Source of the DNA: Sinorhizobium meliloti
GTDB lineage: Bacteria; Pseudomonadota; Alphaproteobacteria; Rhizobiales; Rhizobiaceae
Length of the DNA stretch: 32,000 bases
Assembly: GCF_017876815.1 (NCBI RefSeq)
Contig: NZ_JAGIOS010000003.1
Span: forward strand, 90,001-122,000
Reading direction: 5' to 3'
Both the position numbers and the translations under genes were made by a program. A model generated the notes under the pieces. It searched no databases. It was not told the origin of the DNA and saw only the letters and a list, made by a program, of their open reading frames with translations. This document shows positions 4,075 to 20,877 of this stretch, in pieces. Every line of letters starts with the position of its first letter. Within the stretch, counting starts at the first letter, position 1.

Positions 4075-4524
4075 ATGAGCCTGACGCGACGTCATATGCT
4101 GACCAGCACAATAGGAACAGTGGCATGTGCGGTTGCCCTGCTGACGCCGAAGCATACCCGGGGGACGGATGAGGTTGAGGACTTTCTCTTCCGTATAACT
4201 GGGCGGAAGGCAACCCCCTCGAATCGGCTTCGCCTCGTGATGCCGGCGGAATTCTCGACCGGGTATACGGTGCCCATGAGCATCTCGGTAGATAGTCCGA
4301 TGACCGAGGCCGACCACGTCAAATCCGTCCGTGTATTCGCTCCGAAGAACCCGCTCGTCGAAGTGGCACAGTTCCATTTCGTCCCGGGGCGCAGCCTCCC
4401 CCGCGTCTCGACGCGCGTCCGGCTTGCTGCCCCGCAACATGTGGTGGCACTCGCTGAGATGAGCAACGGTAACCTGCTGACGGCGAAGGCCTGGGTGGCT
4501 GTCGCCACCAATGGCTGTCTCTGA
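4075..4524 (+). CDS. soxY: SoxY-like sulfur carrier protein (Tat signal, C-terminal cysteine arm)
   Basis: Twin-arginine signal MSLTRRHMLTS. Immunoglobulin-like body with the SoxY-type segment VKSVRVFAPKNPLVEVAQFHF. A Cys is second from the C-terminus (..VATNGCL). SD GGAGA lies 7 nt before the ATG. Directly followed by soxZ. Confidence 0.8.
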   Translation: MSLTRRHMLTSTIGTVACAVALLTPKHTRGTDEVEDFLFRITGRKATPSNRLRLVMPAEFSTGYTVPMSISVDSPMTEADHVKSVRVFAPKNPLVEVAQFHFVPGRSLPRVSTRVRLAAPQHVVALAEMSNGNLLTAKAWVAVATNGCL

Positions 4525-4545
4525 AAGTTACGCAAGGAGGTAGGC

Positions 4546-4872
4546 GTGACCACTCCCATACCGCGTGTGATGGTTCCGGGCTCGGCGACAAAAAACGAAG
4601 TGTTCACGGTCAAGGCCATCATCCAGCACCAGATGGAGACGGGGCTGCGCACCGATTCCACGGGCAAGACGATCCCGCGGAAGATCATCAATCAGTTCGT
4701 CTGCCGTTACGGCGGAGTCGAGGTCTTCCGTACCGATCTGCACGAAGCCGTCTCGGCCAATCCGTTCCTTGAGTTCCAGTTGCTCGCGACGGGAAACGGT
4801 CTTCTTGAGTTCTCCTGGCGGGAGGACGGCGGCGCGACCTATTCGCTGTATCACGACATAGTGGTCACCTGA
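4546..4872 (+). CDS. soxZ: SoxZ sulfur carrier complex subunit
   Basis: 108 aa. VKAIIQHQMETGLRTDSTGKTIPRKIINQF and AVSANPFLEF match the conserved SoxZ core. GTG start preceded by AGGAGG at 5 nt. Confidence 0.85.
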   Translation: MTTPIPRVMVPGSATKNEVFTVKAIIQHQMETGLRTDSTGKTIPRKIINQFVCRYGGVEVFRTDLHEAVSANPFLEFQLLATGNGLLEFSWREDGGATYSLYHDIVVT

Positions 4873-4873
4873 C

Positions 4874-5245
4874 ATGAAGCGGGAACGGGCGGCCGCGACC
4901 GTCTCGCGTGCGAAGGGCCTCGCAGCCGAAATCCGGTGGTTGCTCGGTATTTCGCTTTGCGCGATCCTCCTGTTTCCCGAAAGGTCCGCTCCTGCGGAAG
5001 TGAGCCAAGGCGCGCAGATCGCCGCGACCTGCGCGTCCTGTCACGACCCGACTGGCGGCGGGCTGGCCATCCCGCCGATTGCGGCATTGGACGAACGGGC
5101 TATCGTGAAAGCCATGCTCGCCTTTCGTGCAAGTGAAAGCCCCAGCCATGTGATGCATGCGGTCGCATTGTCGCTCAGTGACGACGAGCTGGCCGCGACA
5201 GCGCGCTATCTCGCTGACAGAGCCAAAGCCGGGAGGCAGCCGTGA
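4874..5245 (+). CDS. Monohaem c-type cytochrome, FccA/SoxE-like small subunit of sulfide dehydrogenase
   Basis: One CxxCH (CASCH) after a signal-like hydrophobic segment. Class-I cytochrome c layout. Starts 1 nt after the soxZ stop and overlaps the next gene by GTGA, so translationally coupled to the flavoprotein. Confidence 0.75.
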   Translation: MKRERAAATVSRAKGLAAEIRWLLGISLCAILLFPERSAPAEVSQGAQIAATCASCHDPTGGGLAIPPIAALDERAIVKAMLAFRASESPSHVMHAVALSLSDDELAATARYLADRAKAGRQP

Positions 5246-6516
5246 CGGATTGGACGCGTCGCCAGATCGGCGCCCTGGCCGGAGGAGCGCTGCTGGCGGT
5301 GGCTGCACCACACACTGTTCGCGGTCAGGGACGGGCTAAGGTTGTAGTGATCGGCGGCGGCATCGGCGGCGCAACGGTTGCCCGATACCTCGGCGACATG
5401 AAGTCAATTGACGTCACACTGATCGAACCGAACTCCACCCACGTCACCTGCTTCTTCAGCAGCCACTACCTTGCCGGTCTTCGCTCGCTCGCCTCCCTGA
5501 CTTTCGGCCTGGAGACGCTGGCCGAAGGCCACGACATAACGATCATCCGCGACAGCGCCGTGGCGATCGACCCCGCCGGAAGGGCTGTCGAGCTTCGCGG
5601 CGGCACAAAGCTCTCCTATGACCGCCTCGTCGTCGCCCCGGGGATCGCCTTCAAGTTCGGCGAGATCGAGGGCTATGATGAGGACGCGGCAAAGATCATG
5701 CCGCATGCCTGGATTGCCGGACCCCAGAGTGAACTGCTGCGCCGGCAGCTCGAAAGCATGGACGACGGCGGTGTGTTCGTTATCGCTGCGCCTCCAAACC
5801 CGTTCCGCTGCCCGCCAGCCCCATATGAGCGGGCCTCGCTGGTCGCTTACTATTTCAAACAGTTCAAACCGAAATCGAAGATACTCATTCTCGACGCGAA
5901 GGATCAGTTTTCGGGTCAGGAACTGTTCCAGGATGCGTGGTCGCGTCACTATCCGGGCATAATTGAATGGCTACCTTCTCAGTTCACCGGGGCCATCAAA
6001 GCCGTAAATGTCGCGGCGCGATCGGTGGTCACAGAAGGCGAGACGTTCAGGGCGGCAGTCGCCAATATTATTCCTGCCCAGAAGGCGGGCCTCATCGGCG
6101 AGAAGGCAGGTCTTACGGACGCATCCGGCTGGTGCCCGGTCGATCCAGTGACGTTCGAGTCGACGTTGCAGCCCGGCATCCATGTCGTAGGCGACTCAAT
6201 TATCGGCGGCGACATGCCGAAGTCTGCCTTTTCTGCCAACAGCCAGGCCAAAGCATGCGCTTTTGGCATTGCGGCTTCCCTCACGGGTTCGCCTCAGTTT
6301 CCGCCGCACCTGTTCAACTCGTGCTACACGTTTCTAGCGCCCGACGACGCTTTCACCAATGCCCTTACCTTCGCACCCGAGGGCGGAAGGATAAAAACCG
6401 TGAAAATGTTCATCAGCAAGGTGGGCGAGAGCGCTGAGGTCCGCCGCCGCACCGCCCTTCACGCCGTGGGCTGGTATTCCGCCTTCACTGCAGACGTGTT
6501 CGGCGGTGGCCCCTGA
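5242..6516 (+). CDS. fccB: Flavocytochrome c sulfide dehydrogenase flavoprotein subunit (FccB/SoxF family)
   Basis: Tat signal TRRQIGALAGG. FAD fold KVVVIGGGIGGATVARYL. Family-typical FRCPPAPYERASLVAYYFK and PKSAFSANSQAKACA. Confidence 0.85.
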   Translation: MTDWTRRQIGALAGGALLAVAAPHTVRGQGRAKVVVIGGGIGGATVARYLGDMKSIDVTLIEPNSTHVTCFFSSHYLAGLRSLASLTFGLETLAEGHDITIIRDSAVAIDPAGRAVELRGGTKLSYDRLVVAPGIAFKFGEIEGYDEDAAKIMPHAWIAGPQSELLRRQLESMDDGGVFVIAAPPNPFRCPPAPYERASLVAYYFKQFKPKSKILILDAKDQFSGQELFQDAWSRHYPGIIEWLPSQFTGAIKAVNVAARSVVTEGETFRAAVANIIPAQKAGLIGEKAGLTDASGWCPVDPVTFESTLQPGIHVVGDSIIGGDMPKSAFSANSQAKACAFGIAASLTGSPQFPPHLFNSCYTFLAPDDAFTNALTFAPEGGRIKTVKMFISKVGESAEVRRRTALHAVGWYSAFTADVFGGGP

Positions 6517-6519
6517 TGG

Positions 6520-6767
6520 AATGCCTGGGGCTGCCGTTGGCCGCCGGGAGGATCGGCTGCGGGAATAGCACTGCGGCGGCAACCGACGAGATTGGAGCGG
6601 AACGCCAGAGGAGATTGGTGAGGATCGTCCGGCGAACCGCGCGGGCCACGTCGACGTCCAAGGCAACATCCAAACCCGCTGTCGGTAAGACGAGTGCGGT
6701 CTCTGCTAAAACATGCCGCCCCCTGCCAGTGCCAGTTCGGGTTCACGCAAGGATCGCCGTCGCCGCT
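6520..6767 (-). pseudogene. Relic of the 3' end of a ccoI/fixI-like P1B-type ATPase paralogue
   Basis: Minus-strand translation ..VDVARAVRRTILTNLLW..QPILPAA parallels the intact CcoI C-terminus ..VDVARAVRRTILANLMW..QPILAAA (20.5-20.7 kb). My hand DNA alignment of rc(6601-6670) against 20541-20612 gives 54/66 identical positions with one 1-nt gap. Weaker resemblance continues upstream over the GSATDLARETAGLVL and GDG regions. No start codon and broken frames. The relic is cut off by the fccB 3' end. Confidence 0.6.
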
Positions 6768-6787
6768 CAATCGAGACAGCGGCCGTA

Positions 6788-7258
6788 CTAGTACTTGCCC
6801 GGCTGCAGCACTGAACCGCTGTTGGACCAGGTAATGTATGCTTCGAGCGCCTTCATTGCCTCGGATTCGGGATCGATCTTCGCCCCTTGGTTCGGCTTCT
6901 CGATGCACCAGTTGATCATGTCGCGGAGGGTCGCGAACTTGGCCATCTGCGCCTGGAACTTCGGGAAGGATTGCGGGTGGGTGTCCGATGCCATCGGATG
7001 ACACATCGCGCAAGCCATGCCGGTTTTCGAGAGGTCGTCGGCAACGCCCATCGCTTCGGCCGTTGCGGCGTCGCCATGAAAGAGGAGGTCTCCTTTTCTT
7101 ACCTCCTCCATGAATGCTTCCTGGTAGAGCTTCAATTGCTCCGGCTTTACCGGATCTTTATGGGCGCTGCTCGGCCCCGCGAAAACGGCGGCAATGGCAA
7201 TTCCCCCCACCAGGCTGAAGCGCCGCAGTGAACAGCGGATTTTCGAGTGGGTTGTCAT
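6788..7258 (-). CDS. Secreted monohaem c-type cytochrome
   Basis: Start moved to the ATG at 7258 (MTTHSKIR..), preceded by GGAGGAAGG. The 224-aa track ORF would overlap the upstream gene. Signal peptide ..IAAVFAGPSSA. Single CAMCH haem site. C-terminal WCIEKPNQGAKIDPESEAMKALEAYI. Confidence 0.8.
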   Translation of the reverse strand: MTTHSKIRCSLRRFSLVGGIAIAAVFAGPSSAHKDPVKPEQLKLYQEAFMEEVRKGDLLFHGDAATAEAMGVADDLSKTGMACAMCHPMASDTHPQSFPKFQAQMAKFATLRDMINWCIEKPNQGAKIDPESEAMKALEAYITWSNSGSVLQPGKY

Positions 7259-7271
7259 GACCCTTCCTCCG

Positions 7272-8408
7272 CTAGTATGGCCACATGTTGTCGGCGATCC
7301 TTGGGCGAATAACCTCCGAAACATGCTTGTCATGGTCTTCGGGGGACTGCACGAAGACTTCCTTGCGCCCCCACATGATATATTCCGTTTCCAACTGGTC
7401 GTTGGCCGCCACGTCGATCTTGCTCCAGCCGACTCCATCATAGGGATCGCCGGGGTCGACACGGATCATCGGCTTGGTGAGCTTCGGCAAGCCTTCCGGC
7501 GCATAGGGCCACGGCCAGGACGTGGCTAGCATGCCGATCGAACGCAATGTGCCGATCTCGTTGTAGAGGACCTGGTGCACGTGACCATGAATGTTCGTGA
7601 CCTTGGCATAGGGTTTCAGCACCTCATGGACTTCGCGCCAGTCACGCACCCAGAAGTTCCACGGTGGATAATATTCGTAGAGCGGATTGTGACTGAAGAT
7701 GACCACGGGTCTTGCCTTATCCCAGTCGGCCAAGGTCTTTTCCATCCAGTCGAGCTGGTCCCGACCGACACCGGCCCATGGCCCGGCGACTGTACCGTCC
7801 AGCGTGGCCATGTGGCCCATGCGCTCCTCGGGCGTCATATTCTTTGCAGTCCAGTAGTCCGGTCCGCGGCTGACGGTATCGAGGCCGATGAAGCGCACGC
7901 CCTTGTGGTCGAAGGTCCAGTTGGGCTGCCCAAACAGTTCGCCCCATTTCTTGCCCATATCGAGATACCAGTCGTGCTCGCCTGGGATGTAGTGTTTCGG
8001 GATCGTGATCACCTTGAGTAGATCTACGCCGAGTTCAAGCTCTTCGATCTTTCCGAGCTGGGCGAGGTCACCACCGAAGATCAGGAAATCTGCAGGGGGA
8101 TCCATCGCTTGGACTTCCTGCGCCGCACGCACGACTTTGTCGACGAAGCGTGTGTTAAGGGATCTGGGATAGAGATGGGTGTCGGAGATCCAGGCAAACT
8201 TGAACGGCGCCTCGGCGGCATTCGCGATATCGAGCGTGTTCAGCAGAGGCCACCATGCAAAGGCCTGGCCCACAGTTGCTGCGCCAAATACCAATGACCC
8301 GTGAATGAATGTGCGGCGGGTAATTTTCAATGAGTCGTCGGGCCGAACCCCTTCGGGTTGCAGCACGGAATGCATTTCGCGGCGAATGCGGTCAAGTTCG
8401 TCAGACAT
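7272..8408 (-). CDS. Tat-exported metallophosphoesterase (calcineurin-like fold)
   Basis: Start at 8408 (MSDELDR..), preceded by GGAGGAGA. Twin-arginine signal ITRRTFIHGSLVFGAATVGQAFA. Complete metallophosphoesterase motif set: ISDTH, GGDLAQ, GEHD, SHNP, GHVH. Confidence 0.85.
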   Translation of the reverse strand: MSDELDRIRREMHSVLQPEGVRPDDSLKITRRTFIHGSLVFGAATVGQAFAWWPLLNTLDIANAAEAPFKFAWISDTHLYPRSLNTRFVDKVVRAAQEVQAMDPPADFLIFGGDLAQLGKIEELELGVDLLKVITIPKHYIPGEHDWYLDMGKKWGELFGQPNWTFDHKGVRFIGLDTVSRGPDYWTAKNMTPEERMGHMATLDGTVAGPWAGVGRDQLDWMEKTLADWDKARPVVIFSHNPLYEYYPPWNFWVRDWREVHEVLKPYAKVTNIHGHVHQVLYNEIGTLRSIGMLATSWPWPYAPEGLPKLTKPMIRVDPGDPYDGVGWSKIDVAANDQLETEYIMWGRKEVFVQSPEDHDKHVSEVIRPRIADNMWPY

Positions 8409-8519: not shown

Positions 8520-9239
8520 CTACTTTTTCTTAAGCTCGATATCGAGCGTCGTGGCTTTTCCGCCTTCAACGCTGACGGACATTTCCGTTGGCCCGATGAA
8601 GGGCTGCACCGCAACGAGTTTATACTGTCCGGGAGGAACATCCGTTATCGAGTACTTTCCGTCGGGCCCGGTCACCGCGTAGTAGGGATTATCCACGACG
8701 AAAATCCATCCCTCCATCCAACCATGCGCGTCGCAGTCGATGCGCACTGTACCCGTCCGGGGTAATTCGACCGGTATGCGCTGCCCCTTGTTTGGAAGGG
8801 CCAGGTTAAAGGCGGTACGCTTGCCGTAATAGCCGTGCGTGTTATGAAGCACCGGGTCCGAGTTGACGACGTCGAGCGGTCCTGCGGCGATCACCTGCAC
8901 CTGAGGTTCAAAACGGCATTTCTCGTTGTCGAGTTCAGGGGTCTTGCCAGGCGTCGGCCATTCTTTTCCGGATGCCACCTCGACAAGATAAATGACCGCA
9001 CTCTCGACCGCTTGATTGGCACCCACGCGGATCAGCGGCTCATCCCGCGGCTCTCCGCAAACCTCAACATCTTTGGTCGGGATGATCTTCTTCATCGGGA
9101 CATTGTCACGAAAGACGACGGTGCCCTCGATGGACCCGCCTCCGGTGACAGCGCTTACCTCATAGGAAAGCGCAGGGGGCGCGGTCATGATAACTGCAGC
9201 AGTAATCAGAAACTCAGAGAAGAAGCGGTGCTTTACCAC
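8520..9239 (-). CDS. Secreted cupredoxin-like protein with carboxypeptidase-regulatory-like beta-sandwich domain
   Basis: GTG at 9239 follows GGGAGG at 6 nt. Signal-like N-terminus ..AAVIMTAPPALS. Candidate type-1 copper ligands: H in SDPVLHNTHG plus CDAHGWM (C-x2-H-x2-M, amicyanin-like spacing). C-terminal YYAVTGPDGKYSITDVPPGQYKLVAV is typical of CarboxypepD_reg domains. The rest of the 483-aa track ORF is antisense to sco. Confidence 0.7.
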   Translation of the reverse strand: MVKHRFFSEFLITAAVIMTAPPALSYEVSAVTGGGSIEGTVVFRDNVPMKKIIPTKDVEVCGEPRDEPLIRVGANQAVESAVIYLVEVASGKEWPTPGKTPELDNEKCRFEPQVQVIAAGPLDVVNSDPVLHNTHGYYGKRTAFNLALPNKGQRIPVELPRTGTVRIDCDAHGWMEGWIFVVDNPYYAVTGPDGKYSITDVPPGQYKLVAVQPFIGPTEMSVSVEGGKATTLDIELKKK

Positions 9240-9257
9240 AGCGAACCTCCCTTCCCT

Positions 9258-9482: not shown

Positions 9483-10091
9483 ATGGAGGGGCGGAACGAT
9501 CCGCATCGGGCTGCGACTTTCCACCGGGCGTTTTTTTATGGCCTCGTTTGCGCTGCGGTATTCGTCACCATGCCGGCTTTCGCTGCTTCGCCGGCGACTG
9601 TTGGTGGCCCATTCAATCTCATCGCACCCGATGGGGCCGTGGTGACCGATGCGAGGTTTCGCGGTAAATGGATGCTGGTCTTCTTCGGCTACACCTATTG
9701 TCCCGATCTCTGTCCGACGACGCTGAGCGAGATCGCTATCGCACTCGACAGGCTTGGCCCCGAGGCGGCGAAGGTGCAGCCGATCTTCATCACCGTCGAT
9801 CCCGAACGTGATACGCCTGAGGTAATGGGGCAATATACTGGCGCCATCGACCGGCGAATCTTGGGATTGACTGGCGATAAGCAGCAGATCGCCGCGGTGT
9901 CGCACAAATACGGCGCTTATAGCGAACGCCATCCACCGGATCCGGGCACCGGCGACTATGTCGTCGATCATAGTACTTACATCTACATCATGAATCCCAG
10001 CGGCAAGTTCGTTCGCGGCCTGCAGGCCGGCACGCCCGGTGATGCTATGGCCGACGCGCTGCGGCGTCTGATGCGGCAGAACGGCGAGTGA
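9483..10091 (+). CDS. SCO1/SenC family copper chaperone (thioredoxin fold)
   Basis: AAGGAGG lies 6 nt before the ATG. N-terminal membrane anchor. Copper-binding CPDLCP in [25 protein letters not shown]. Distal His in [17 protein letters not shown]. Confidence 0.9.
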
Positions 10092-11386
10092 TGGCCACGC
10101 TGACGGTGCGTGCGGATACGGGGAAGGCCATGCCTGAACATTTGTCGCATTCCAAAAGGTTCGGGACGGCGCAATATGATCACTTCTTCGCCGACGCTAT
10201 GGCGCAAATCCATGCCGAGCAGCGCTATCGTGTGTTCGCAGACCTCGAACGGATGGCCGGCGATTTTCCCCGCGCACTCTGGCATGGACCGAGCGGGTCG
10301 CAGGAAGTTATCATTTGGTGTTCGAACGACTATCTGGGCATGGGGCAGCACCCCAGCGTGATCGCCGCCATGACTGAAGCCGCGAAGCGTCTGGGAACAG
10401 GCGCGGGGGGCACGCGCAATATATCCGGAACCACTCATCCGCTGCTCGAGTTGGAGATCGAACTCGCGGATCTTCATCACAAGGAAGCGGCGCTGGTTTT
10501 CACCTCAGGATATGTCTCAAACCAGACAGGCATCTCCACGATTGCAAAGCTGGTCCCCGATTGTGTCATCCTCTCGGATGCGCTCAACCATAATTCGATG
10601 ATCGAGGGTATTCGGCAGTCGGGCTGCGAAAAGCGGATCTTCCGTCACAATGATCACCGCCACCTCGAGGAATTGCTGAGGACGGTGGGGCGGGGGCGGC
10701 CGAAATTGATCGTATTCGAAAGCCTCTATTCGATGGATGGCGATATCGCTCCGATTCGCCGCATCTGCGATCTTGCCAAATATTACGGGGCCATGACTTA
10801 CCTCGATGAGGTCCATGCCGTCGGCATGTACGGCCCGCGCGGTGGCGGCATCGCTGAACGAGACCGTGTCATGCACCGGATCGATGTTATCGAAGGAACG
10901 CTTGCCAAGGCCTTCGGCTGCCTTGGTGGCTACATAGCGGGAACCGTCACCCTCATCGATGCGGTTCGCTCCTACGCGCCGGGGTTCATATTCACCACGG
11001 CTTTACCGCCACCAATTTGTGCCGCGGCCACCGCCGCGATCCGCCATCTGAAGGTGTCTCACTCTGAGCGATGCGCTCATCAGGACCGCGTTCAGCGGGT
11101 AAAGGCAGAGCTAAACGGGGCGAGGCTGCCGGTCATGGCCAGTGGCAGTCACATTGTTCCCCTGCGCGTCGGCGATCCCGCGAAGTGCAAGGCAGCGAGC
11201 GATATGCTGCTCGAGGCTCATCGTATCTACATCCAGCCGATCAACTATCCTACCGTGGCGAGGGGAACCGAGCGGCTGCGCATCACGCCCTCTCCGTGCC
11301 ACGACGACATCATGATCAGTCAACTCGTGGCCGCGCTCAGCGAGGTCTGGGATGAACTCGGGCTGCCACGCGGAAGTGCCGCCTAG
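10091..11386 (+). CDS. hemA: 5-aminolevulinate synthase (ALAS, C4 haem pathway)
   Basis: [51 protein letters not shown] and the PLP-lysine motif EGTLAKAFG. The ATG at 10091 overlaps the sco stop (TGATG). Alternative starts are GTG 10088 and ATG 10130. Canonical ALAS would align from about QYDHFF. Confidence 0.9.
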
Positions 11387-13511: not shown

Positions 13512-13754
13512 TCACGGCTCGCGTTCAGGAAGGTCGAAGTTGAGCTGCAACATTCGCGCTATGTTTATCAGAATCGTCTCACAGACTTTCTCTTGATTAG
13601 GATCGAGATATTTGACAGTCCAGTTTGCCCCGTTCTCCTTGGTTTCGAGCCGCTGAATCACAAAATCGGTGACGTGCTCGCAGCCCGGTTCCTTATGAAG
13701 ATCCGCGAGGATCAATTCCTTAAGCTCCGAAGCTTCCTTTGTATGTCTTTGCAT
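13512..13754 (-). CDS. Hypothetical small protein (80 aa), AT-richer than its surroundings
   Basis: ATG at 13754 preceded by GGAAGGAGA at 6 nt. Soluble-looking sequence MQRHTKEASELKELILADLHKEPGCEHVTDFVIQRLETKENGANWTVKYLD.. with no family recognised. Confidence 0.45.
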   Translation of the reverse strand: MQRHTKEASELKELILADLHKEPGCEHVTDFVIQRLETKENGANWTVKYLDPNQEKVCETILINIARMLQLNFDLPEREP

Positions 13755-13888
13755 GGCCGCTCTCCTTCCGGATGACAACTTTCGACGCATCGCTCAACTC
13801 CATAGTCGCGATCTACGTCATGGCTAGACATGGTACTGTTTTGGCTTTATTTTTAAAAGTTGCCCCTCGTTCTCATCAGGTGGCTTCT

Positions 13889-14152: not shown

Positions 14153-15607
14153 TTGGCAGAGACTGGGATGGAGCTGCGCGGCAACTTTGCGAACGTTGAC
14201 CTGGATGCGCTGGTCGACCACCGGGTCGTGCGGACCTGGCTCTATTTCGGCATGTTCTGGCTGATGGTGACGCCATCCGTTGGCGTTTTGATATCGAGCA
14301 CCTTCAACTATCCCGACTATCTCGGCTCGGGGAACCTCGAGCTCACCTTCGGCCGGCTGCGCCCGGTCCACGTCAACGGTGTTATCTTCGGCGCCTTCTC
14401 GACGCTTTTCATAGGCCTTTGCTACTATCTCGTGCCGCGTCTGTCGGGGGTGCGGGTGATATGGTCAGAGTGGTCGGTTCTTCTCGCATGGGTCTGGAAC
14501 ATCGCAACACTTGCCGGTTTGGTCGGCTTGCTGATCGGCGACAGTGACGGTTTGGAAGCCGGAGAGCTTCCGCTATACGCTAAAGTCGCATTCTTCATCG
14601 TGGTGGGTGTTGCTACCGCGCAGTTCCTGATCACGATCAGTCGAAGGCTCGAGCCAGCGATCTATGTCGCGCTGTGGTACCTGATCGCCACTTTCGTGTG
14701 GACGACGATGAACTTCGTGCTTGGAAGCTTCATCCTGCCATACACGATCTCGGGCATCAACAGCGCCGCCTTCCATGGCCTCTATCTCCACTACATCGTT
14801 GGGCTGTGGCTAACGCCCGCAGGCTACGTGATCATCTACTATTTCCTGCCGGTCAGCGCGCGAAATCCGCTCTATGCCCATAAGCTCTCGCTGGTAGGCT
14901 TCTGGTCCCTGGCATTGTTCTACCCGTTCGTCGGCATCCACCATTACCTCTACAGCCCGATCGCCGACTGGGCCGAGACCTTGGCCGTCGTCACGTCGAT
15001 GCTGCTGATCATTCCGGTGTGGACGGTGCTGGTGAACTTCTTCGGCACCATGATGGGCAAGTGGCATGAGTTCGGCAGAAACCTGCCGGCGAAGTTCCTG
15101 ATCATGGGCTCGCTCATGTATCTCGTCGGCTGCTTCCAAGGCTCGACCGAGGCGCTGCGGCAGGTGCAGCAGCCGACCCATTTCACCGATTTCGTCATCT
15201 CGCATTCGCATCTTACCGTATTCGGCACCTTCGTCGTCTGGGCGATGGGGGGCCTCGTCTATACTTGGCCGCGGCTGTTCGGGCGCGAACTCTGGTCATT
15301 CAAGCTCGGCAACTGGTCGTTCTGGCTGATCACAGTCGGCATTGCGACCATGGGCCTGGTTCTCACAGCGGGCGGCCTGCAGCAGGGTTACCAATGGATG
15401 AATGGCGTCGAATGGCTCGACTCCCTCGTCTGGGTGAAGCCCTACTGGCTGGCGCGGACCCTGGCAGGTATCAGCATGGATATCGGCATTTCGCTGCTGG
15501 TGGTGAATCTGATGTTGACTGCGCTGACCAGCCCGGCGGCTGAGGCGCGACGCGTCGGCAGGCCGGAGGGGCCTATCCAGGCCCCGGCGGGAGGGCTCGC
15601 ACGGTGA
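14153..15607 (+). CDS. ccoN: cbb3-type (C-family) haem-copper oxidase subunit I, CcoN/FixN-like, divergent
   Basis: 12-TM protein. FGRLRPVHVNGVIFG (low-spin haem His). AAFHGLYLHY (CuB His). YPFVGIHHYLY has Y-x5-HH, the C-family cross-link Tyr plus two CuB His. ISHSHLTVFG carries the two haem His. TTG at 14153 lies 8 nt after GGGGAGG. Alternative start ATG 14168. Confidence 0.9.
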   Translation: MAETGMELRGNFANVDLDALVDHRVVRTWLYFGMFWLMVTPSVGVLISSTFNYPDYLGSGNLELTFGRLRPVHVNGVIFGAFSTLFIGLCYYLVPRLSGVRVIWSEWSVLLAWVWNIATLAGLVGLLIGDSDGLEAGELPLYAKVAFFIVVGVATAQFLITISRRLEPAIYVALWYLIATFVWTTMNFVLGSFILPYTISGINSAAFHGLYLHYIVGLWLTPAGYVIIYYFLPVSARNPLYAHKLSLVGFWSLALFYPFVGIHHYLYSPIADWAETLAVVTSMLLIIPVWTVLVNFFGTMMGKWHEFGRNLPAKFLIMGSLMYLVGCFQGSTEALRQVQQPTHFTDFVISHSHLTVFGTFVVWAMGGLVYTWPRLFGRELWSFKLGNWSFWLITVGIATMGLVLTAGGLQQGYQWMNGVEWLDSLVWVKPYWLARTLAGISMDIGISLLVVNLMLTALTSPAAEARRVGRPEGPIQAPAGGLAR

Positions 15608-17268
15608 ACGTTCGCTTCTTCGCGCTGTTCGCCGGCGTCTTCTGCATCACCCTTGCGGTGATCACGCAGGGCGTGCTGCCCTTCGTGGAGCCGTCCTCGC
15701 GAACTACGCGCGTGACCTCGGTGGTGCGCACGGATTTCGGCCAGCTGAAATGGATGGTTTCAGAGGCGACGGACTACACCGAGCAGCAGCTTCGCGGCCG
15801 CAATATCTATCTGCGCGAAGGCTGCTGGTACTGCCATTCCCAATTCGTGCGGCCAGTGACCGGCGAGATCCGCCGCTGGGGACCGGTGAGCGAGGCCGGC
15901 GAATACGCCTATGACGTGCCGCACCTGTTTGGCACACGCCGGATCGGACCAGACCTGACGCGCGTCGGCCTGAAATACAGCGACGAATGGCACCTGGCGC
16001 ACTTCTACGATCCGCGGATGCTGGTGCCGGACTCGATAATGGCGCCGTATCGCGGCCTCTTCCACGAGCCCGATGCAGCTGTCCGTATCGTTGACGACGG
16101 CGCTGGCAATCGGACCCTGGAAAGGACAGAGGTCACCGAGGGCATGTTCGACTTCGACAGCCAGCAGGCGATCCAGCTGACGCCGAATGCATCCGGGTTG
16201 CTGTTCGTGCCGCTGAAGGCGCGCGATAGAAAGCCGATCATCCTGACGCCGAACGACGAATACGCAGGCGAAACCGTCAGCATCGCGACGGAAACGGAAT
16301 CGGTGGCGGCGCTCATTTCTTACCTCCAGAAGCTCGGCACGAACCGAGGTAAATGGCGCGATCTTTTCGAGCCGCAAAGCCTGGAGGTCATGGATGCGAC
16401 GATGCCGCGCTCCGAGGAATGGATTGCTTATGGCAAGGAAGTCTATGAGCGCCGCTGCATCGGTTGCCACGGTGCCAAGGGCGACGGCAATGGGCCGGCC
16501 GCCACCTTCATGTATAACCAGCGGCCTAGGGATTTCACGTCCGCAGTCTTCAAGTTCAGGTTGACAAAGGAGCCCCTGCCCACGGACGGCGACATGCTGC
16601 GCACCATTACTCGCGGCATCCGCGGCACGGCAATGCCCCCTTGGTACGACCTGCCGCTCAACGATCGGCTGGCGGTGATCCAGTACATCAAGTATGAGCT
16701 AGCGGTTGACCGTTCCAATCCCGCCAATCCTTACGCTTTCTTCGTCGAGGAACCGCCTGGCCCACCCTTGTATATCGGGCGGCCGCCGATCCCGTCCCAG
16801 ACGATGCTGGACCGTGGCAAGGAGATTTGGCAGGTGGCGAAATGCTGGGAGTGCCATGGCCAAGGCGGCAAGGGAGACGGCGAGAAGGCTGCCGGCCTCA
16901 AGGATGATCTCGGGTTCGTCAGCGTGCCGGCCGACCTCACCAGCGGCCAATTCAAGTCTGGCCCGGCCGTCGAAGACATCTTCCGGACGATAACTACGGG
17001 CCTTAGCGGCACGCCGATGCCGTCCTACCGGAATGCATTTCCGGACGAGGACCGGTGGGCGCTTTCCTATTTCGTGGTAGCGCTTTCCGCCTATAAAGAC
17101 CCGCTCTCGCTGCAGCCGCTCCCGATCGATAAGGAGGCCCGCGCGGCGCTGAACGATCTGGAACTGGTCGCTGACAAGCCTGAGCGAGCGTATGTACCCG
17201 ATCCGTCGGTGCCAGCGTCCGGCCCGCCAGCGCCGCCTGCCGAAGAACAGGCACCCGCCGGAGGTTAG
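15604..17268 (+). CDS. Fused CcoO (monohaem) plus CcoP-like dihaem cytochrome c subunit
   Basis: GTGA overlap with ccoN. The N-terminal anchor plus EGCWYCHSQFVRP, GTRRIGPDLTRVGLKYSDEWHLAHFYDPR, SIMAPY and ALISYLQKLG make a full CcoO. Two further class-I haem domains follow (CIGCHGAKGDGNG and CWECHGQGGKGDG), then a Pro/Ala-rich tail. Three CxxCH in one 554-aa chain. Confidence 0.85.
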   Translation: MNVRFFALFAGVFCITLAVITQGVLPFVEPSSRTTRVTSVVRTDFGQLKWMVSEATDYTEQQLRGRNIYLREGCWYCHSQFVRPVTGEIRRWGPVSEAGEYAYDVPHLFGTRRIGPDLTRVGLKYSDEWHLAHFYDPRMLVPDSIMAPYRGLFHEPDAAVRIVDDGAGNRTLERTEVTEGMFDFDSQQAIQLTPNASGLLFVPLKARDRKPIILTPNDEYAGETVSIATETESVAALISYLQKLGTNRGKWRDLFEPQSLEVMDATMPRSEEWIAYGKEVYERRCIGCHGAKGDGNGPAATFMYNQRPRDFTSAVFKFRLTKEPLPTDGDMLRTITRGIRGTAMPPWYDLPLNDRLAVIQYIKYELAVDRSNPANPYAFFVEEPPGPPLYIGRPPIPSQTMLDRGKEIWQVAKCWECHGQGGKGDGEKAAGLKDDLGFVSVPADLTSGQFKSGPAVEDIFRTITTGLSGTPMPSYRNAFPDEDRWALSYFVVALSAYKDPLSLQPLPIDKEARAALNDLELVADKPERAYVPDPSVPASGPPAPPAEEQAPAGG

Positions 17269-17271
17269 CGC

Positions 17272-17496
17272 ATGCTCGGTTTTGAAGTTACCGGACCCTA
17301 TGTGGGCGCCATGCTGATGAGCCTGGCGGCCCTGTTCTTGTTCATCTGGGGCGTCCTGTCAGGCGCGTTGAGCGGCACCGACAAAGCCGCCAACGGGTTT
17401 TTTGAAAGGGAAATGGAAAATGAGCGATCTGCAGAGCAGCGATCCGGAGAGCCCGAGGCATCCGGAACTGGAGGTGCGTCAAAGCTCGCACCCTGA
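17272..17496 (+). CDS. Small single-TM protein, CcoS/FixS-like (alternatively CcoQ-like)
   Basis: ATG lies 3 nt after the ccoOP stop. One TM helix followed by FIWGVLSGALSGTDKAAN, resembling the CcoS pattern W-x3-SGQ-x-DD..A. Charged tail. The 3' 77 nt overlap the next ORF. Confidence 0.45.
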   Translation: MLGFEVTGPYVGAMLMSLAALFLFIWGVLSGALSGTDKAANGFFEREMENERSAEQRSGEPEASGTGGASKLAP

Positions 17497-17644
17497 ACTG
17501 GAGGACTATGCCGGCGGCCTGATACAGGCGCGTGTGGGGTTCATTCCGCTATGGCTTCTCGTCGTCTACATGCTGCTGTTCGGCTGGGGCCTGTATTACA
17601 TGTATGTCTATTGGGGCGGGCTCGGCCCCGGCCGTCTGTTCTAG
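17420..17644 (+). CDS. Small membrane protein resembling the detached N-terminal anchor domain of CcoP (FixP_N-like)
   Basis: ATG at 17420. The acidic N-terminus contains HPELE twice. EDYAGGLIQARVGFIPLWLLVVYMLLFGWGLYYMYVYW resembles the DGI..P.P.WW..F..T.....Y pattern of FixP N-terminal domains. No haem site. Confidence 0.45.
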   Translation: MSDLQSSDPESPRHPELEVRQSSHPELEDYAGGLIQARVGFIPLWLLVVYMLLFGWGLYYMYVYWGGLGPGRLF

Positions 17645-17677
17645 AAGACTGTCGCAAGGACCGTTAAGGCAGGAGTG

Positions 17678-17782
17678 ATGGAGATGTTGGTAGCCAAAAT
17701 TCTCCTTGGGGTCGCCGCATTGAACCTCCTTTTCCTGGCCTTCGAGGTGGCGATAAACGTGCTTCGTCTTTATTTCGGCTGA
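17678..17782 (+). CDS. Unannotated 34-aa single-TM mini-ORF
   Basis: AGGAG lies 2 nt before the ATG (an alternative ATG is two codons in). MEMLVAKILLGVAALNLLFLAFEVAINVLRLYFG. Below the ORF-track cutoff. Fits exactly into the gap in the operon. Confidence 0.3.
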   Translation: MEMLVAKILLGVAALNLLFLAFEVAINVLRLYFG

Positions 17783-17796
17783 CATAGGAGCAGCGG

Positions 17797-17919
17797 ATGC
17801 TACAGGACACCGTCTTCAAGCTCGCTGACGCCGGCTTGCCGCAGATGCTTGGGTTCCTCATCTATGGCGGCTGCACCGTCGGCTTTATCATCTATCTTTT
17901 CTATCTTGTGCGGCAATAG
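17797..17919 (+). CDS. Unannotated 40-aa single-TM mini-ORF (CcoQ/FixQ-like layout)
   Basis: TAGGAG lies 6 nt before the ATG. MLQDTVFKLADAGLPQMLGFLIYGGCTVGFIIYLFYLVRQ. A short polar N-terminus followed by one TM helix, as in FixQ. Confidence 0.35.
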   Translation: MLQDTVFKLADAGLPQMLGFLIYGGCTVGFIIYLFYLVRQ

Positions 17920-17938
17920 CGGCGCAGCGAAAACGCCA

Positions 17939-18667
17939 ATGTTCTACTACCTCGTGATCTTCGCCGCTGGATTTGCAGGCAGCTTTCATTGCATCGGCAT
18001 GTGCGGCGGCTTTGCCTGCGCGTTGGGCCGCGATCAGCGAGGCGGAGGCGCAACCCTCCTTCGCCACCTGCTCTATAATACCGGCCGATTGACAACCTAT
18101 TGCTTTCTGGGCGGGCTCGCCGGTGCGGTCGGTCAGGTCATCTGCACCACGCAAGGTGTAGCGGCGGCGCCGCTCTTTAACGGCTCCCTCGACATCGCCC
18201 AACGAATTCTCGCGATCGTCGCTGGCCTGCTCATGATTGCCATGGCGTTGCAGTTCTTCGGCTTGTTGCAGGTCTTTCATCGCCTTGCGATCGGATTTGG
18301 CGGCAGCACATTTGCTTTGTCCCTGCGCAGTCTGGTGACGGCCCGGAGTAGCGCCGCGCCGCTCGCCTTTGGCGTTTTCAACGGCTTCCTGCCATGTCCC
18401 CTGGTTTATGCCTTCGCCGCCCAGGCGGCGAGCACCGCCGGAGCGCTTCCCGGGTTCCTCGTCATGGCTTGGTTCGGATTGGGAACCTTCCCCGCGATGC
18501 TGATGATGGGCGGCGTTGGCCGGATACTCGGGCCAGCCGGGCGGCGGCGCGGCGTGCGGCTGGCTGGTGGCTTTATTCTTTTTCTCGGTCTCATCACGCT
18601 CGGCCGTGGTCTCCTGCCTTCTCACGCGCATATCGGCCTTGCCTGGCTGGGCGGACATTCCACATGA
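17939..18667 (+). CDS. DsbD_2 / TauE-SafE-like multi-pass membrane protein with paired-cysteine motifs
   Basis: Start set to ATG 17939 (MFYYLVIFAAGFAGSFHCIGMCGGF). HCxxMCGG motif in TM1 and FLPCPLVY in a later TM. About 6 TM helices. Its stop overlaps the ccoI start (ATGA). Confidence 0.75.
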   Translation: MFYYLVIFAAGFAGSFHCIGMCGGFACALGRDQRGGGATLLRHLLYNTGRLTTYCFLGGLAGAVGQVICTTQGVAAAPLFNGSLDIAQRILAIVAGLLMIAMALQFFGLLQVFHRLAIGFGGSTFALSLRSLVTARSSAAPLAFGVFNGFLPCPLVYAFAAQAASTAGALPGFLVMAWFGLGTFPAMLMMGGVGRILGPAGRRRGVRLAGGFILFLGLITLGRGLLPSHAHIGLAWLGGHST

Positions 18668-20877
18668 CTGCGCATGATCATATCCTCTGTAGCCATTGTT
18701 CGCTGCCCGTTGGCGTGCGCCCAATGGAGCGCAGGCTCGACGGTGAGGCTTGCACGTTCTGCTGCTACGGCTGTTGCATCGCCTTTCAGGTGAAGAGCGG
18801 CAGACACGAAGAATGGGAAGCCGCCTGGCTTCTGATCCAGCTTGGCGTGGGTGGCTTTCTCTCCATGAACATCATGATGTTCAGCCTCCTCCTCTATTCG
18901 GACGCATTCACCGGGGTCGATGCGGGCGTGCTGCCGTGGATTCACTTTTTGCTCTGGATCTTCGCGACGCCGGCGGTGGTGCTTCTCGGCGGACCCTATC
19001 TGCGCGAAATGTGGCTCAATGGCATGCAGGGACGAGTGACATCGTCGGCACTCATCGTGCTTGGCGTCGCTGCCGCTTACCTCTACTCGGCGTTTGCCGT
19101 GTTCGAGGGCAGCACGCATGTCTATTTCGACACCGCCGTGATGGTGCTGATGCTATTTACCGTTGGCCGCTATCTCGAGGCTGTTGGCCGCGCAAGGGCG
19201 GCGCGCGACCTCGAACCTCTTCTGGCCGCAGAAAGCGAGAGCGCGACCGTGGTCGATGGCGCGGCAGAGATCCGCGGTCCGGTGCGGGAGGTGTCGGCCG
19301 GCATGCTGGTGCGGGTTCGGCCAGGCGAGCGCATTCCGGTCGACGGCGTGGTTGTCGAGGGGGAATCGAACACCGATGAAGCCGTGATTACCGGAGAAAG
19401 CCGGCAAGTGACAAAGGGCGCCGGCTCCAAGGTGATTGCCGGCAGCATCAATATCGACGGCCCGCTTCTGATCCAAAGCAGCGCTGACGGAACCGCAACC
19501 CGCTGGGCGAGGATTTGCCGGTCGGTGCGCGAAGCGCTCGGCCGTCGCAGCCCAACCCAGCGCCTTGCCGATCGCGTCGTCGGCGTGTCCGTGCCGCTCG
19601 TCCTTGCCCTCGGCGGTCTGACGATCGTTTACTGGGCGCAGTCATTGCCGTTCGATCGGGCGTTGCTAATTGGCCTCTCGGTACTGGTGGTTGCCTGTCC
19701 TTGTGCCGTCGGCCTCGCTGCTCCGATGGCGACATCACTCGGCATCGGCCGGCTGGCGCGGCACGGCTGCCTCGTCCGCGATCCCGGCGTACTCGAGACC
19801 CTCGCACGTGTACGGTTACTCGCCTTCGACAAGACCGGCACTCTGACGGCGGGCAAAGCACGTCTAGTCGGCGTCTACGGCGAGGAGGTCGGCTTTGACC
19901 AAGTGCTGGCGCGCGCCGCCGGTCTGGAGCGCCTTTCCGAGCATGGTCTGGCGCAGGCCATCACGGCAGCCGCCGCTCAGCGGGACATCACGCCGCTCGT
20001 CACCAGCGATGTTCGGACGGTTCCCGGCCGTGGCATCCGCGGCAGCGCCGAAGGCCGGCCCGTGGCGGCAGGGAACGGCAGATTGATGAATGATCTGGGC
20101 TGGCCGCTTCCCCCGTCGCTGGCCGAGCGTGCGCGGTCGTTGGAGGCGAGCGGTCATTCGGTGGTCTATGTGGGTTGGGGCGAGCGGGTTCACGCCGTGC
20201 TGTCGCTCGACGACTCACCGCTTCCCGAGGCGCAGGCCGCGATCGCGGCGCTGCGCAAGCGCGGGCTCGACGCCACGCTGTTGACCGGCGACCTGGCGCA
20301 AGCGGCGGAGCGGATCGCGGCCTTGGTTGGGATCAAGGACGTCCAAGCCGGCCTTTCGCCGGAGGCCAAACGGCTGGCGCTGGATCGGCTCCGCCATGAC
20401 CACGTTTCGGTGGCGATGGTCGGCGATGGGCTGAATGACGGACCGGTCCTGGCCGCCGCAGATATCGGTATCGCCGTCGGCTCCGCCACAGATCTCGCCC
20501 GCGAGACTGCAGGGCTCGTGCTGCCTGCGGATGGATTTTGGATGCTGCCCTGGATCGTCGACGTGGCCCGCGCGGTCCGCAGGACCATCTTGGCCAACCT
20601 TATGTGGGCGTTCGGCTACAACCTCGTCGCGCTGACGTTCGCAGCATTCGGACTTCTGCAGCCAATCCTTGCGGCGGCGGTCATGGCCGGCTCGAGCATC
20701 CTCGTTGTGGTGAATTCGCTGCGGCTGGAGCGGCTGCCCGATCCTGTTCCAGCGCTCATGCCGGCGCAACGATCCGACATCAATGTGGAGCGCACACACA
20801 ACGTAAGCGGCATTTCCGCGATGGCCGGGCCGGCCGTCGGGCATGACCTTGCCACCCGTGGTCCGCTCGATCCTTAA
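18664..20877 (+). CDS. ccoI: Copper-translocating P1B-type ATPase, CcoI/FixI-like
   Basis: Start at ATG 18664 (MTAHDHILCSHCSLP..CTFCCYGCCIAF), giving the Cys-rich CcoI-type N-terminal metal-binding domain with no HMA domain. TGES, CPC in TM6, DKTGTLT, GDGLNDGP. N-x6-YN and M-x2-SS-x5-N form the Cu(I) signature. SEHGL replaces the usual SEHPL. Confidence 0.9.
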   Translation: MTAHDHILCSHCSLPVGVRPMERRLDGEACTFCCYGCCIAFQVKSGRHEEWEAAWLLIQLGVGGFLSMNIMMFSLLLYSDAFTGVDAGVLPWIHFLLWIFATPAVVLLGGPYLREMWLNGMQGRVTSSALIVLGVAAAYLYSAFAVFEGSTHVYFDTAVMVLMLFTVGRYLEAVGRARAARDLEPLLAAESESATVVDGAAEIRGPVREVSAGMLVRVRPGERIPVDGVVVEGESNTDEAVITGESRQVTKGAGSKVIAGSINIDGPLLIQSSADGTATRWARICRSVREALGRRSPTQRLADRVVGVSVPLVLALGGLTIVYWAQSLPFDRALLIGLSVLVVACPCAVGLAAPMATSLGIGRLARHGCLVRDPGVLETLARVRLLAFDKTGTLTAGKARLVGVYGEEVGFDQVLARAAGLERLSEHGLAQAITAAAAQRDITPLVTSDVRTVPGRGIRGSAEGRPVAAGNGRLMNDLGWPLPPSLAERARSLEASGHSVVYVGWGERVHAVLSLDDSPLPEAQAAIAALRKRGLDATLLTGDLAQAAERIAALVGIKDVQAGLSPEAKRLALDRLRHDHVSVAMVGDGLNDGPVLAAADIGIAVGSATDLARETAGLVLPADGFWMLPWIVDVARAVRRTILANLMWAFGYNLVALTFAAFGLLQPILAAAVMAGSSILVVVNSLRLERLPDPVPALMPAQRSDINVERTHNVSGISAMAGPAVGHDLATRGPLDP

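Follow-up and report, generated by a model that had tools for sequence, protein, structure and literature searches.

Among described systems, those closest to the locus treated here are the canonical cbb3-type oxygen reductases, encoded by ccoNOQP (fixNOQP) together with ccoGHIS (fixGHIS), and the thiosulfate-oxidising Sox system (SoxXA, SoxYZ, SoxB and SoxCD) with the SoxEF/FccAB sulfide dehydrogenase. SoxB, one of the Sox proteins, belongs to the metallophosphoesterase superfamily. A copper route through CcoA, CcoI and SenC is known from Rhodobacter, and in Acidithiobacillus ferrooxidans the system of the rus operon has an aa3-type oxidase and the outer-membrane protein Cyc2, with iron as its substrate. 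Clusters for 'distal' cbb3 oxidases without CcoP and CcoQ have also been described (Ducluzeau et al. 2008, as cited in PMC8788666), and a CcoP-less 'distal' cbb3 oxidase of Sideroxydans is up-regulated on thiosulfate (PMC8788666). For the sulfur carrier SoxY, a published survey gives VTIGGC as the canonical arm and excluded sequences without GGC (PMC11237559). Here, we describe a gene cluster of Sinorhizobium meliloti in which relatives of several of these components are encoded side by side. It lies within a stretch of 32,000 nucleotides (assembly GCF_017876815.1, contig NZ_JAGIOS010000003.1, positions 90,001 to 122,000), the whole of which is called the window.

We read the genes at window positions 4075-20877 as a mobile, modular respiratory cluster built around a deep-branching, CcoP-less cbb3-type oxygen reductase and linked to sulfur, and put the probability of this reading at roughly 55%. 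Its parts differ in strength. The cluster itself is confirmed as real, and the view that its genes are a co-inherited unit is supported by comparison across genomes. A mechanism of sulfur-driven respiration is plausible, from the encoded proteins and by analogy with known enzymes.

Gene content and recurrence of the cluster

The window is part of the symbiotic megaplasmid pSymA and shows 100% identity to strains RU11/001 and SM11. An original prediction, made from the sequence without database searches, had placed in it genes for sulfur carriers, a sulfide dehydrogenase, secreted redox proteins, copper and haem supply, a chaperonin and a cbb3 oxidase. Scans with Pfam and NCBIfam models, together with direct reading of the translations, found all of these gene classes within 4075-20877. 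The genes were compared with 83 related loci, comprising the best 80 and three others, each taken with 10-kb flanks. They are listed here with the number of these loci that hold a homologue.

4075..4524, forward strand: SoxY-like sulfur carrier with a twin-arginine signal (PF13501, 9e-26); 52 loci
4546..4872, forward strand: SoxZ (PF08770, 1e-25; TIGR04490 SoxZ_true, 86.8 bits, above the cutoff of 76); 52 loci
4874..5245, forward strand: monohaem cytochrome c, FccA/SoxE-like sulfide dehydrogenase subunit (single CASCH; Cytochrom_C match); 50 loci
5242..6516, forward strand: FccB/SoxF-type flavoprotein of flavocytochrome c sulfide dehydrogenase, with a twin-arginine signal (FCSD_central, PF21706, 1e-45; FCSD-flav_bind, PF09242, 3e-14; Pyr_redox_2); 50 loci
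6788..7258, reverse strand: SoxA/TsdA-like monohaem cytochrome c, 156 residues (PF21342, 7e-10; CAMCH); 59 loci
7272..8408, reverse strand: metallophosphoesterase, 378 residues, of the binuclear GpdQ/CpdA/purple-acid-phosphatase class (PF00149; twin-arginine motif TRRTF); 60 loci
8520..9239, reverse strand: secreted amicyanin-like cupredoxin with a CarboxypepD_reg beta-sandwich, 239 residues (amicyanin alignment, AlphaFold2/Foldseek); 68 loci
9483..10091, forward strand: Sco1/SenC copper chaperone (PF02630, 8e-50; CPDLCP motif); 43 loci
10130..11386, forward strand: extra 5-aminolevulinate synthase, ALAS (TIGR01821, 667.6 bits, cutoff 338.6); 34 loci
11503..13143, forward strand: orphan GroEL (TIGR02348, 726.6 bits, cutoff 582); 47 loci
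14168..15607, forward strand: divergent C-family haem-copper oxidase catalytic subunit, CcoN-like (PF00115, 4e-72; TIGR00780, 227.6 bits, cutoff 583); 83 loci
15604..17268, forward strand: monohaem CcoO fused to a C-terminal dihaem cytochrome c (FixO, 2e-45, and two cytochrome c domains; three CxxCH motifs); 81 loci
17272..17496, forward strand: orf74, small membrane protein of 74 residues, candidate CcoS/FixS analogue (FixS, PF03597, E = 0.13, 12.5 bits, cutoff 23); 69 loci
17420..17644, forward strand: orf80, small single-pass membrane protein (conserved ...PLW..VY..L..WGLYY...YWGGLGPG); 82 loci
17939..18667, forward strand: DsbD_2-family membrane protein (PF13386, 3e-43; conserved HCxGMCGG and LPCP motifs); 81 loci
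18664..20877, forward strand: P1B-1 (Cu+) ATPase, CcoI-like (TIGR01511, 447 bits, cutoff 397; CPC, YN and MxxSS motifs); 74 loci

Open reading frames (ORFs) outside 4075-20877 have no homologues across the 83 loci, and the conserved set thus coincides with the coordinates that had been predicted. CxxCH motifs in real genes are confined to FccA (one), the SoxA-like protein (one) and the CcoO fusion (three).

The divergent CcoN is encoded in at least 560 species genomes, a count obtained by scanning a single GTDB genome of each species for a sequence pattern. It has more than 1,500 database relatives, the top 120 of which share 73-86% identity. Oxidase and sulfur genes occur together in 45 of the loci, which represent at least 10 genera: Sinorhizobium/Ensifer, Mesorhizobium, Rhizobium, Bradyrhizobium, Microvirga, Phyllobacterium, Allomesorhizobium, Pseudaminobacter, Methyloceanibacter and Propylenella, along with many uncultured soil Alphaproteobacteria. 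One gene order is common to 39 of these 45 loci. GroEL, ALAS and Sco run leftward and diverge from a rightward set, which consists of the cupredoxin (usually), the metallophosphoesterase, the SoxA-like protein, CcoN, the CcoO fusion, the small ORFs, the DsbD_2 protein and the ATPase. Facing the ATPase end is a convergent set that encodes FccB, FccA, SoxZ and SoxY. The comparison of genomes that had been proposed as a check therefore came out in favour of the cluster, with the set syntenic in at least 45 species-level genomes and at least 10 genera. Because the genes recur together in dozens of genomes, their grouping is far beyond chance. The distribution is also nested, in layers that follow roughly the order of oxidase core, cupredoxin, metallophosphoesterase with SoxA-like protein, and SoxYZ-FccAB.

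The oxidase core

The core comprises CcoN, the CcoO fusion, three small membrane proteins, the DsbD_2 protein and the Cu(I) P1B-ATPase, and it is nearly universal among the 83 loci. The catalytic subunit falls below the curated equivalog threshold of TIGR00780. Its residues H73, H213, H263, H264, H351 and H353 align with the haem b, haem b3 and CuB histidines of Pseudomonas stutzeri CcoN (PDB 3MK7), which we take to be H60, H207, H257, H258, H345 and H347, and all six are invariant in A1 and in a motif scan of homologues. The helix-VII tyrosine, within the motif YPFVGIHH, aligns with Y251 of P. stutzeri, is present in 83 of 84 homologues and is the predicted cross-link residue. Both YPFVGIHH and a second motif, GCFQGS, are invariant across 83-84 CcoN homologues. 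Since the tyrosine, all CuB histidines and the two motifs are conserved, a reading of the protein as a nitric oxide reductase is unlikely and was rejected. In all 84 homologues, Gln occupies the position aligned with P. stutzeri Glu323, a residue presumably hydrogen-bonded to the haem b3 histidine. In the window protein, the position aligned with His243, which we assume to sit in the proton channel, is Gly.

The second subunit combines two parts. A monohaem CcoO is identified by residues 56-155, which line up with the CcoO chains of 3MK7 and 9G83 over a stretch that contains the CWYCH motif. For the dihaem half, the best PDB match is 6H5L_B (2e-44), a dihaem cytochrome of Kuenenia type. No CcoP chain was matched, and the score against the CcoP model TIGR00782 is 45 bits, for which the cutoff is 180. 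Of the ccoN and fused ccoOP originally proposed, a divergent CcoN and a CcoO fusion were thus recovered, and the fusion partner is not CcoP.

Two small, overlapping ORFs follow. In orf74, the N-terminal transmembrane segment is conserved. A CcoS-like protein had been predicted here; the small membrane ORF exists, and its match to FixS stays below threshold. The second, orf80, is a candidate extra oxidase subunit. Searches of Pfam and the PDB returned no match for it, which leaves its identification as a CcoP N-terminal anchor or as CcoQ unsupported. A further small ORF lies between orf80 and the DsbD_2 gene.

17797..17919, forward strand: 40-residue single-pass membrane ORF, annotated in strain ml28; ORFs of 32-48 residues lie at the equivalent place in three related loci (L005-L007)

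The ATPase has a Cys-rich N-terminus, with the pattern CxHC...CCxGC in 74 of 80 homologues. Its start at 18664 overlaps the stop of the DsbD_2 gene, as it does in other genomes. The public annotation of strain ml28 starts the ATPase at 18724 and so drops the Cys-rich motif, which is encoded in 18664-18723.

No CcoP, CcoQ, CcoG or CcoH was found among the scanned ORFs of the island, and the gene calls of the related loci likewise hold no CcoG or CcoH. Of the ccoGHIS (fixGHIS) set, the CcoI-type ATPase is present, and CcoG and CcoH are missing. Consequently, the arrangement differs from fixNOQP-fixGHIS, as had been claimed.

The sulfur genes

The gene-level signature of FccAB/SoxEF is present, that is, a flavocytochrome c sulfide dehydrogenase flavoprotein gene with an adjoining gene for a c-type cytochrome. 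The stop of fccA overlaps the start of fccB by 4 nt. For the Sox system, the picture is mixed: SoxZ is recognised by its curated model, and SoxXA, SoxB and the GGCGG arm of SoxY are not found. The C-terminus of SoxY reads ...ATNGCL in place of the canonical GGCGG swinging arm. The protein falls under both NCBIfam cutoffs, for SoxY_true and for the AACIE-arm type; its score against TIGR04488 is 83 bits (cutoff 125). Its arm, AT(N/D)GC-x, is kept across 53 homologues.

The SoxA-like protein, metallophosphoesterase and cupredoxin

Three genes on the reverse strand encode the middle layers of the cluster. In the SoxA-like protein, the cysteine of an INWC motif aligns with the INAC cysteine of SoxA (1H31) and the GDCF cysteine of TsdA (4WQ7). 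We take both of these to be haem-ligand cysteines, the latter presumably being Cys96, the haem-1 ligand. The protein therefore probably has His/Cys haem ligation, as judged from this alignment. Both the CAMCH and the INWC-type motif occur in 59 of 62 homologues. Against the SoxA model TIGR04484, the protein scores 30.8 bits (cutoff 110), and a SoxXA complex is not indicated. Two monohaem cytochromes had been predicted as soluble carriers. Both were found, and the motifs of the SoxA/TsdA-like one make it more likely to be catalytic than a mere carrier.

The twin-arginine motif and phosphoesterase domain of the next protein agree with the exported metallophosphoesterase that had been proposed. 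Its invariant residues are D76, H78, D114, E144-H145-D146, H240, H274 and H276, and they include an invariant GEHD where GNHD is usual, with Glu in place of the canonical Asn. NCBIfam matches are to CpdA/SpdA-type models. The best Foldseek matches are GpdQ and Rv0805, not SoxB, for an AlphaFold2 model of low confidence (pLDDT 57). A SoxB homologue was ruled out, as the enzyme was placed with purple acid phosphatases, GpdQ and CpdA by NCBIfam, PDB sequence and Foldseek searches. Among about 2,780 database relatives (E <= 1e-5), the best 120 share 69-88% identity. The protein is among the most conserved of the cluster and is 97% identical to its S. fredii counterpart, compared with only 80% for CcoN.

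The 239-residue protein meets the description of a predicted type-1 (blue) copper cupredoxin in its modelled fold and its His...Cys-x2-His-x2-Met ligands, which bears out the cupredoxin-like protein of the original prediction. The N-terminal half aligns with amicyanin, including the copper ligands, and the C-terminal half is a CarboxypepD_reg beta-sandwich. Ligands H132/H135, C169, H172 and M175 (C-x2-H-x2-M) are invariant in 30 sequences. The AlphaFold2 model has a pLDDT of 76, and its best Foldseek matches are amicyanins, with a target-normalised TM of about 0.6.

Copper supply, haem supply and the chaperonin

Genes for Sco, a CcoI-type copper ATPase and a DsbD_2 protein are all present (PF02630, TIGR01511 and PF13386), as are the extra ALAS and the orphan GroEL, both of which score above their model cutoffs. 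No groES adjoins groEL. The GroEL tail (window 13084-13143) is proline-rich, then histidine-rich and acidic, and replaces the usual GGM repeats. This type of His-rich tail is kept among the cluster GroELs of more than 40 related loci, and its composition hints at metal binding. Equating the gene with groEL3 of strain 1021 was rejected, as the 50-85 kb region of the 1021 pSymA is without similarity to the window and 1021 is not among the plasmids that carry the oxidase genes. In Bradyrhizobium-type clusters (L029, L032, L036, L038, L044 and similar loci, about 19.3-21 kb), the GroEL gene immediately precedes soxYZ-fccAB in the same orientation instead of adjoining ALAS and Sco; it has stayed with the cluster and moved to another operon.

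An accessory, chimeric island

Evidence from strain comparisons supports the view that the cluster is an accessory, horizontally mobile island. About 28 S. meliloti pSymA records hold it at 99% identity or more, including SM11, RU11/001, BL225C and Rm41. Strain 1021 gave no match and is absent among the plasmids with the oxidase genes, strain RRI128 also lacks the island, and S. medicae matches the right flank only. At the same site, the pSymA-type plasmid of RRI128 (L002 4508-9309) carries a methyltransferase and an FecCD-type ABC transporter with two permeases, an ATPase and a binding protein. This alternative cassette marks the locus as a variable hot spot. Both the absence from close relatives and the horizontal acquisition that had been proposed were thus upheld, through presence/absence polymorphism among strains and a foreign-like affinity of the oxidase block. 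No tRNA is present, no flanking direct repeats were found at the island, and the ORFs scanned within and next to it include no integrase. GC content does not deviate, the value being about 0.60 in island and flanks alike.

The island is a chimera. Window 4051-13141 resembles the cluster of S. fredii GR64 at 77-82% nucleotide identity, and window 13469-20842 shows 93-94% nucleotide identity to Mesorhizobium clusters. At the protein level, CcoN through the ATPase are 92-97% identical to Mesorhizobium and 54-80% identical to the S. fredii counterparts. For SoxY, FccB, the metallophosphoesterase and GroEL, the closest counterparts are those of S. fredii. Three gene relics accompany this pattern.

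6462..6703, reverse strand: relic of an S. fredii-type P1B-ATPase gene, reduced to a degraded 3' end (forms inverted repeat I2 together with 20549-20607)
13820-13924, forward strand: relic, first 105 nt of a Mesorhizobium-type cupredoxin gene (sequence comparison)
13918-14042, forward strand: relic of a second SoxA-like gene, reduced to a degraded 3' end that contains an in-frame stop (inverted repeat I1 of 125 nt; 77% complementarity with 6788-6912)

The ATPase relic sits exactly where the ATPase gene abuts fccB in the common arrangement, and it marks the place from which the native oxidase block was deleted. By tblastn, it matches the C-terminus of the GR64 ATPase at 84% over the last 25 residues, and by blastn, 6539-6699 matches L003 17566-17735. 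An ORF on its opposite strand, orf91 (6516-6791, forward strand), was ruled out as a gene, being the antisense of the relic. The SoxA-like relic lies directly upstream of ccoN, within the gap of about 1 kb between groEL and the ccoN-like gene. Taken together, the three relics and the chimeric identity indicate that the native oxidase block was lost and a xenologous, Mesorhizobium-type block was kept. Exactly one intact copy of each component remains, and the conserved cluster genes are all full-length relative to their homologues. The same gap holds one further ORF.

13512..13790, reverse strand: small hypothetical ORF, 93% nucleotide identity to L011 6313-6666, no Pfam family

It is kept only in close relatives (13 loci), and its sequence affinity indicates that it arrived with the Mesorhizobium-type block.

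In strain ml28, an IS630-family ISRm2011-2 element (L001 14723-15669, at about window 6720) lies between fccB and the SoxA-like gene. Among plasmids CP130046, CP130055 and NZ_CP021813, two have small indels that split ccoN/ccoO and one keeps the last 28% of the oxidase segment.

The borders of the island carry further gene remnants.

3161..3766, forward strand: truncated TetR-family regulator (TetR_N and partial TetR_C_27, profile positions 1-61 of 106)
21948..23112, reverse strand: PALP dehydratase and ornithine-cyclodeaminase gene fragments of the right flank (partial profile coverage only)

TetR is cut at about residue 116, near window position 3509. Homology with the island-free strain stops near 3509, and homology with other island-bearing strains begins at 3809. 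A decayed TetR gene had been taken to mark the left border. The truncation is real and is also present in island-free RRI128, so the decay was not caused by the island. At the right, the pseudogene zone that had been described was recovered. Its fragments have no homologues in the 83 loci and lie outside the conserved cluster. They fall within a low-GC stretch (0.53) at window 21500-23500, and about 1 kb at 22344-23367 is missing from RRI128.

Regulation

Sixteen FixK/FNR-box matches were found where 8.6 were expected, which is not above chance, and none is well placed. Sites resembling sigma-70 promoters and terminators were likewise at chance level. No common operator emerged from 8-mer enrichment in the upstream regions of 46-84 loci. 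The divergent intergenic region between the cupredoxin and sco genes holds a perfect 9-bp inverted repeat at 9258-9283 (TGAAGGAAA-N8-TTTCCTTCA). It occurs only in the window and in one close relative (L010) and is therefore not a cluster-wide operator. When the unassigned ORFs of the 83 loci were clustered, no universal regulator appeared among them. The only neighbours to emerge were a LysR regulator and a dihaem cytochrome c, each in 10 loci, and a haem-motif outer-membrane-like protein in 8 loci.

Proposed function and alternatives

In a sulfur-linked cluster of this composition, FccAB would oxidise periplasmic sulfide, and sulfane or thiosulfate sulfur would be carried on the penultimate cysteine of the SoxYZ arm. 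The SoxA-like haem protein might couple sulfur oxidatively to the carrier, by analogy with SoxXA, and the metallophosphoesterase might release it hydrolytically, by analogy with SoxB, with carrier-bound or free sulfur species as the substrates of both. Electrons from FccA and the SoxA-like haem would enter the CcoO dihaem domain, either directly or via the cupredoxin. From there, they would pass through haem c and haem b to the haem b3-CuB site, where oxygen would be reduced. The DsbD_2 protein, presumably coupled in translation to the ATPase, would deliver copper together with the ATPase and Sco, in a manner likened to the Rhodobacter route. Lastly, ALAS would raise haem supply, and the small proteins and GroEL could help assembly, with GroEL perhaps folding or metal-loading precursors. 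The thiosulfate response of the 'distal' oxidase in Sideroxydans (PMC8788666) offers an indirect precedent. A more specific version of this scheme is tentative. It holds that the cluster encodes a self-contained form of periplasmic sulfur oxidation, in which a variant SoxYZ, a His/Cys haem protein and a GpdQ-class phosphoesterase replace SoxXA and SoxB. This form, with its own supply of copper, haem and chaperonin, would be wired by blue copper to the CcoP-less oxidase and exchanged among rhizobia and abundant soil Alphaproteobacteria.

Several observations weigh against a sulfur-linked respiratory unit. SoxY lacks the canonical GGCGG arm, SoxX, SoxB and SoxCD are absent from the cluster, and the metallophosphoesterase is of the GpdQ/CpdA class without likeness to SoxB. 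Neither a regulatory motif shared by the operons nor a significant promoter was found. Gln occupies the Glu323-aligned position, and the enzyme's high oxygen affinity is putative. Within the S. meliloti island, the oxidase block stands apart from the operon of the cupredoxin, metallophosphoesterase and SoxA-like protein, and the indels or deletions in ccoN/ccoO of a few strains suggest occasional decay of the island. The distribution also counts here. About 20 of the 83 loci, mainly in Gammaproteobacteria (e.g. Steroidobacteraceae), have the core without sulfur genes within 10 kb. Ten more, including Thiocapsa and Pelagibius, have the metallophosphoesterase and SoxA-like genes and no SoxYZ-FccAB nearby. 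As the core stands without sulfur genes in about a quarter of the loci, sulfur input is not intrinsic to the oxidase, and the cassette is modular. The original proposal of a single functional unit is thus partly borne out, in that the genes are co-inherited, syntenic and retained through xenologous replacement, and the loci that hold the core alone show that the cassette need not be driven by sulfur.

The alternative that survives best, although we consider it unlikely, is that the unit proper consists of the oxidase, the cupredoxin and the assembly genes and provides an alternative terminal oxidase for general purposes. FccAB and SoxYZ would then guard the oxidase from sulfide, with electron input incidental. 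Sulfide does inhibit haem-copper oxidases, the sulfur genes form a separate, convergent transcription unit, and ten of the roughly 20 core-only loci also have the cupredoxin. However, detoxification alone leaves unexplained why a His/Cys-type SoxA/TsdA-like cytochrome and a metallophosphoesterase stand within the oxidase operon, directly upstream of ccoN, in about 60 loci. Moreover, FccAB reduces a c-type cytochrome, and its electrons must therefore reach some oxidase.

It is rather improbable that the cupredoxin, metallophosphoesterase and SoxA-like protein act on a substrate other than sulfur, such as Fe(II), Mn(II) or a phosphoester-linked compound, in a wiring like that of the rus operon and with soxYZ-fccAB independent of them. 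The joining of a cupredoxin with c-type cytochromes and an oxidase in a single operon does resemble iron-oxidation clusters. The class of the phosphoesterase, with its invariant Glu for the usual Asn ligand, and the ten loci that have this enzyme and the SoxA-like protein without SoxYZ nearby point in the same direction. Set against this, the cysteine of the monohaem protein aligns with those of SoxA and TsdA, which we take to be active-site ligands of sulfur enzymes, and SoxYZ-FccAB adjoin in about 50 of the roughly 60 metallophosphoesterase loci. There is also no conserved outer-membrane iron oxidase in the related loci, where extra cytochromes occur in only 8-10.

That the S. meliloti island is a non-functional, decaying mosaic of two acquired clusters, complete only by accident, would fit its chimeric make-up, its three gene relics, the cutting of the oxidase block from its native upstream genes, the insertion in ml28, the indels or partial deletion in several strains and its absence from many others, but is very doubtful given full-length conserved genes, at least 99% identity in some 27-28 independent isolates and the retention of one intact copy of each component after redundant parts were deleted.

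The sulfur-linked respiratory cluster remains our preferred reading, and for it the replacement of the oxidase block in S. meliloti by a xenologous one amounts to natural evidence of selection for the full set. If it is correct, a transferable module with which a heterotroph would respire reduced sulfur via a private terminal oxidase is present in many rhizobia and uncultured soil Alphaproteobacteria. This would bear on how such bacteria tolerate sulfide and gain energy in microoxic habitats, among them the rhizosphere and nodules. Tractable hosts exist in S. meliloti SM11, Rm41 and BL225C, in S. fredii and in Mesorhizobium. The cluster also opens several uncharacterised families: the deep-branching cbb3 clade, the periplasmic metallophosphoesterase, SoxY with a new arm, the SoxA/TsdA-type monohaem protein and the His-tailed GroEL.

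Comparison with known systems

The cluster shares with canonical cbb3 oxidases (3MK7 of P. stutzeri; 6XKW, presumably of Rhodobacter capsulatus) the six histidines, the helix-VII tyrosine, a monohaem CcoO whose start codon overlaps the ccoN stop, a CcoI-like ATPase and a Sco/SenC gene nearby. It differs in lacking CcoP, CcoQ, CcoG and CcoH, in the fusion of CcoO to a dihaem domain of another family, in its divergent CcoN (228 bits, cutoff 583) and in the addition of a DsbD_2 protein, a cupredoxin and conserved small subunits.

With the Sox system and SoxEF/FccAB, it has in common the SoxY/SoxZ pair, a SoxA-type haem domain with its cysteine, a sulfide dehydrogenase made of a monohaem protein and a flavoprotein, and the presence of an enzyme of the metallophosphoesterase superfamily. 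In contrast, the SoxY arm is AT(N/D)GC-x rather than GGCGG or VTIGGC, the SoxA-like protein is only monohaem, SoxX and SoxCD are missing and the phosphoesterase is not SoxB-like. TsdA (4WQ7) likewise pairs a CxxCH haem domain with a downstream cysteine that aligns at the GDCF motif. The cluster protein lacks the second, electron-exit haem of TsdA, and the similarity is weak (E = 0.011).

The 'distal' cbb3 clusters without CcoP and CcoQ, compared here by their published description (Ducluzeau et al. 2008, as cited in PMC8788666), are alike in their altered subunit composition. An association with a cupredoxin, a metallophosphoesterase, a SoxA-like protein, SoxYZ-FccAB, ALAS and GroEL was not found in that description as far as it is given there. 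The rus operon of A. ferrooxidans is alike in encoding periplasmic oxidising proteins, a cupredoxin, c-type cytochromes and a terminal oxidase together, and differs in that its components are not homologous to those of the cluster.

Full-text literature searches found no published description of the cluster's combination of genes, in keeping with the original prediction, which knew of no described system with these genes, and the cluster is apparently undescribed. The counterparts of CcoN, CcoP, SoxY, SoxA and SoxB fall short of the curated thresholds of their canonical families. The parts are nevertheless of known kinds, namely a C-family oxidase, Sox/Fcc proteins, a cupredoxin, Sco, a P1B-ATPase, ALAS and GroEL, and it is their combination that is apparently new.

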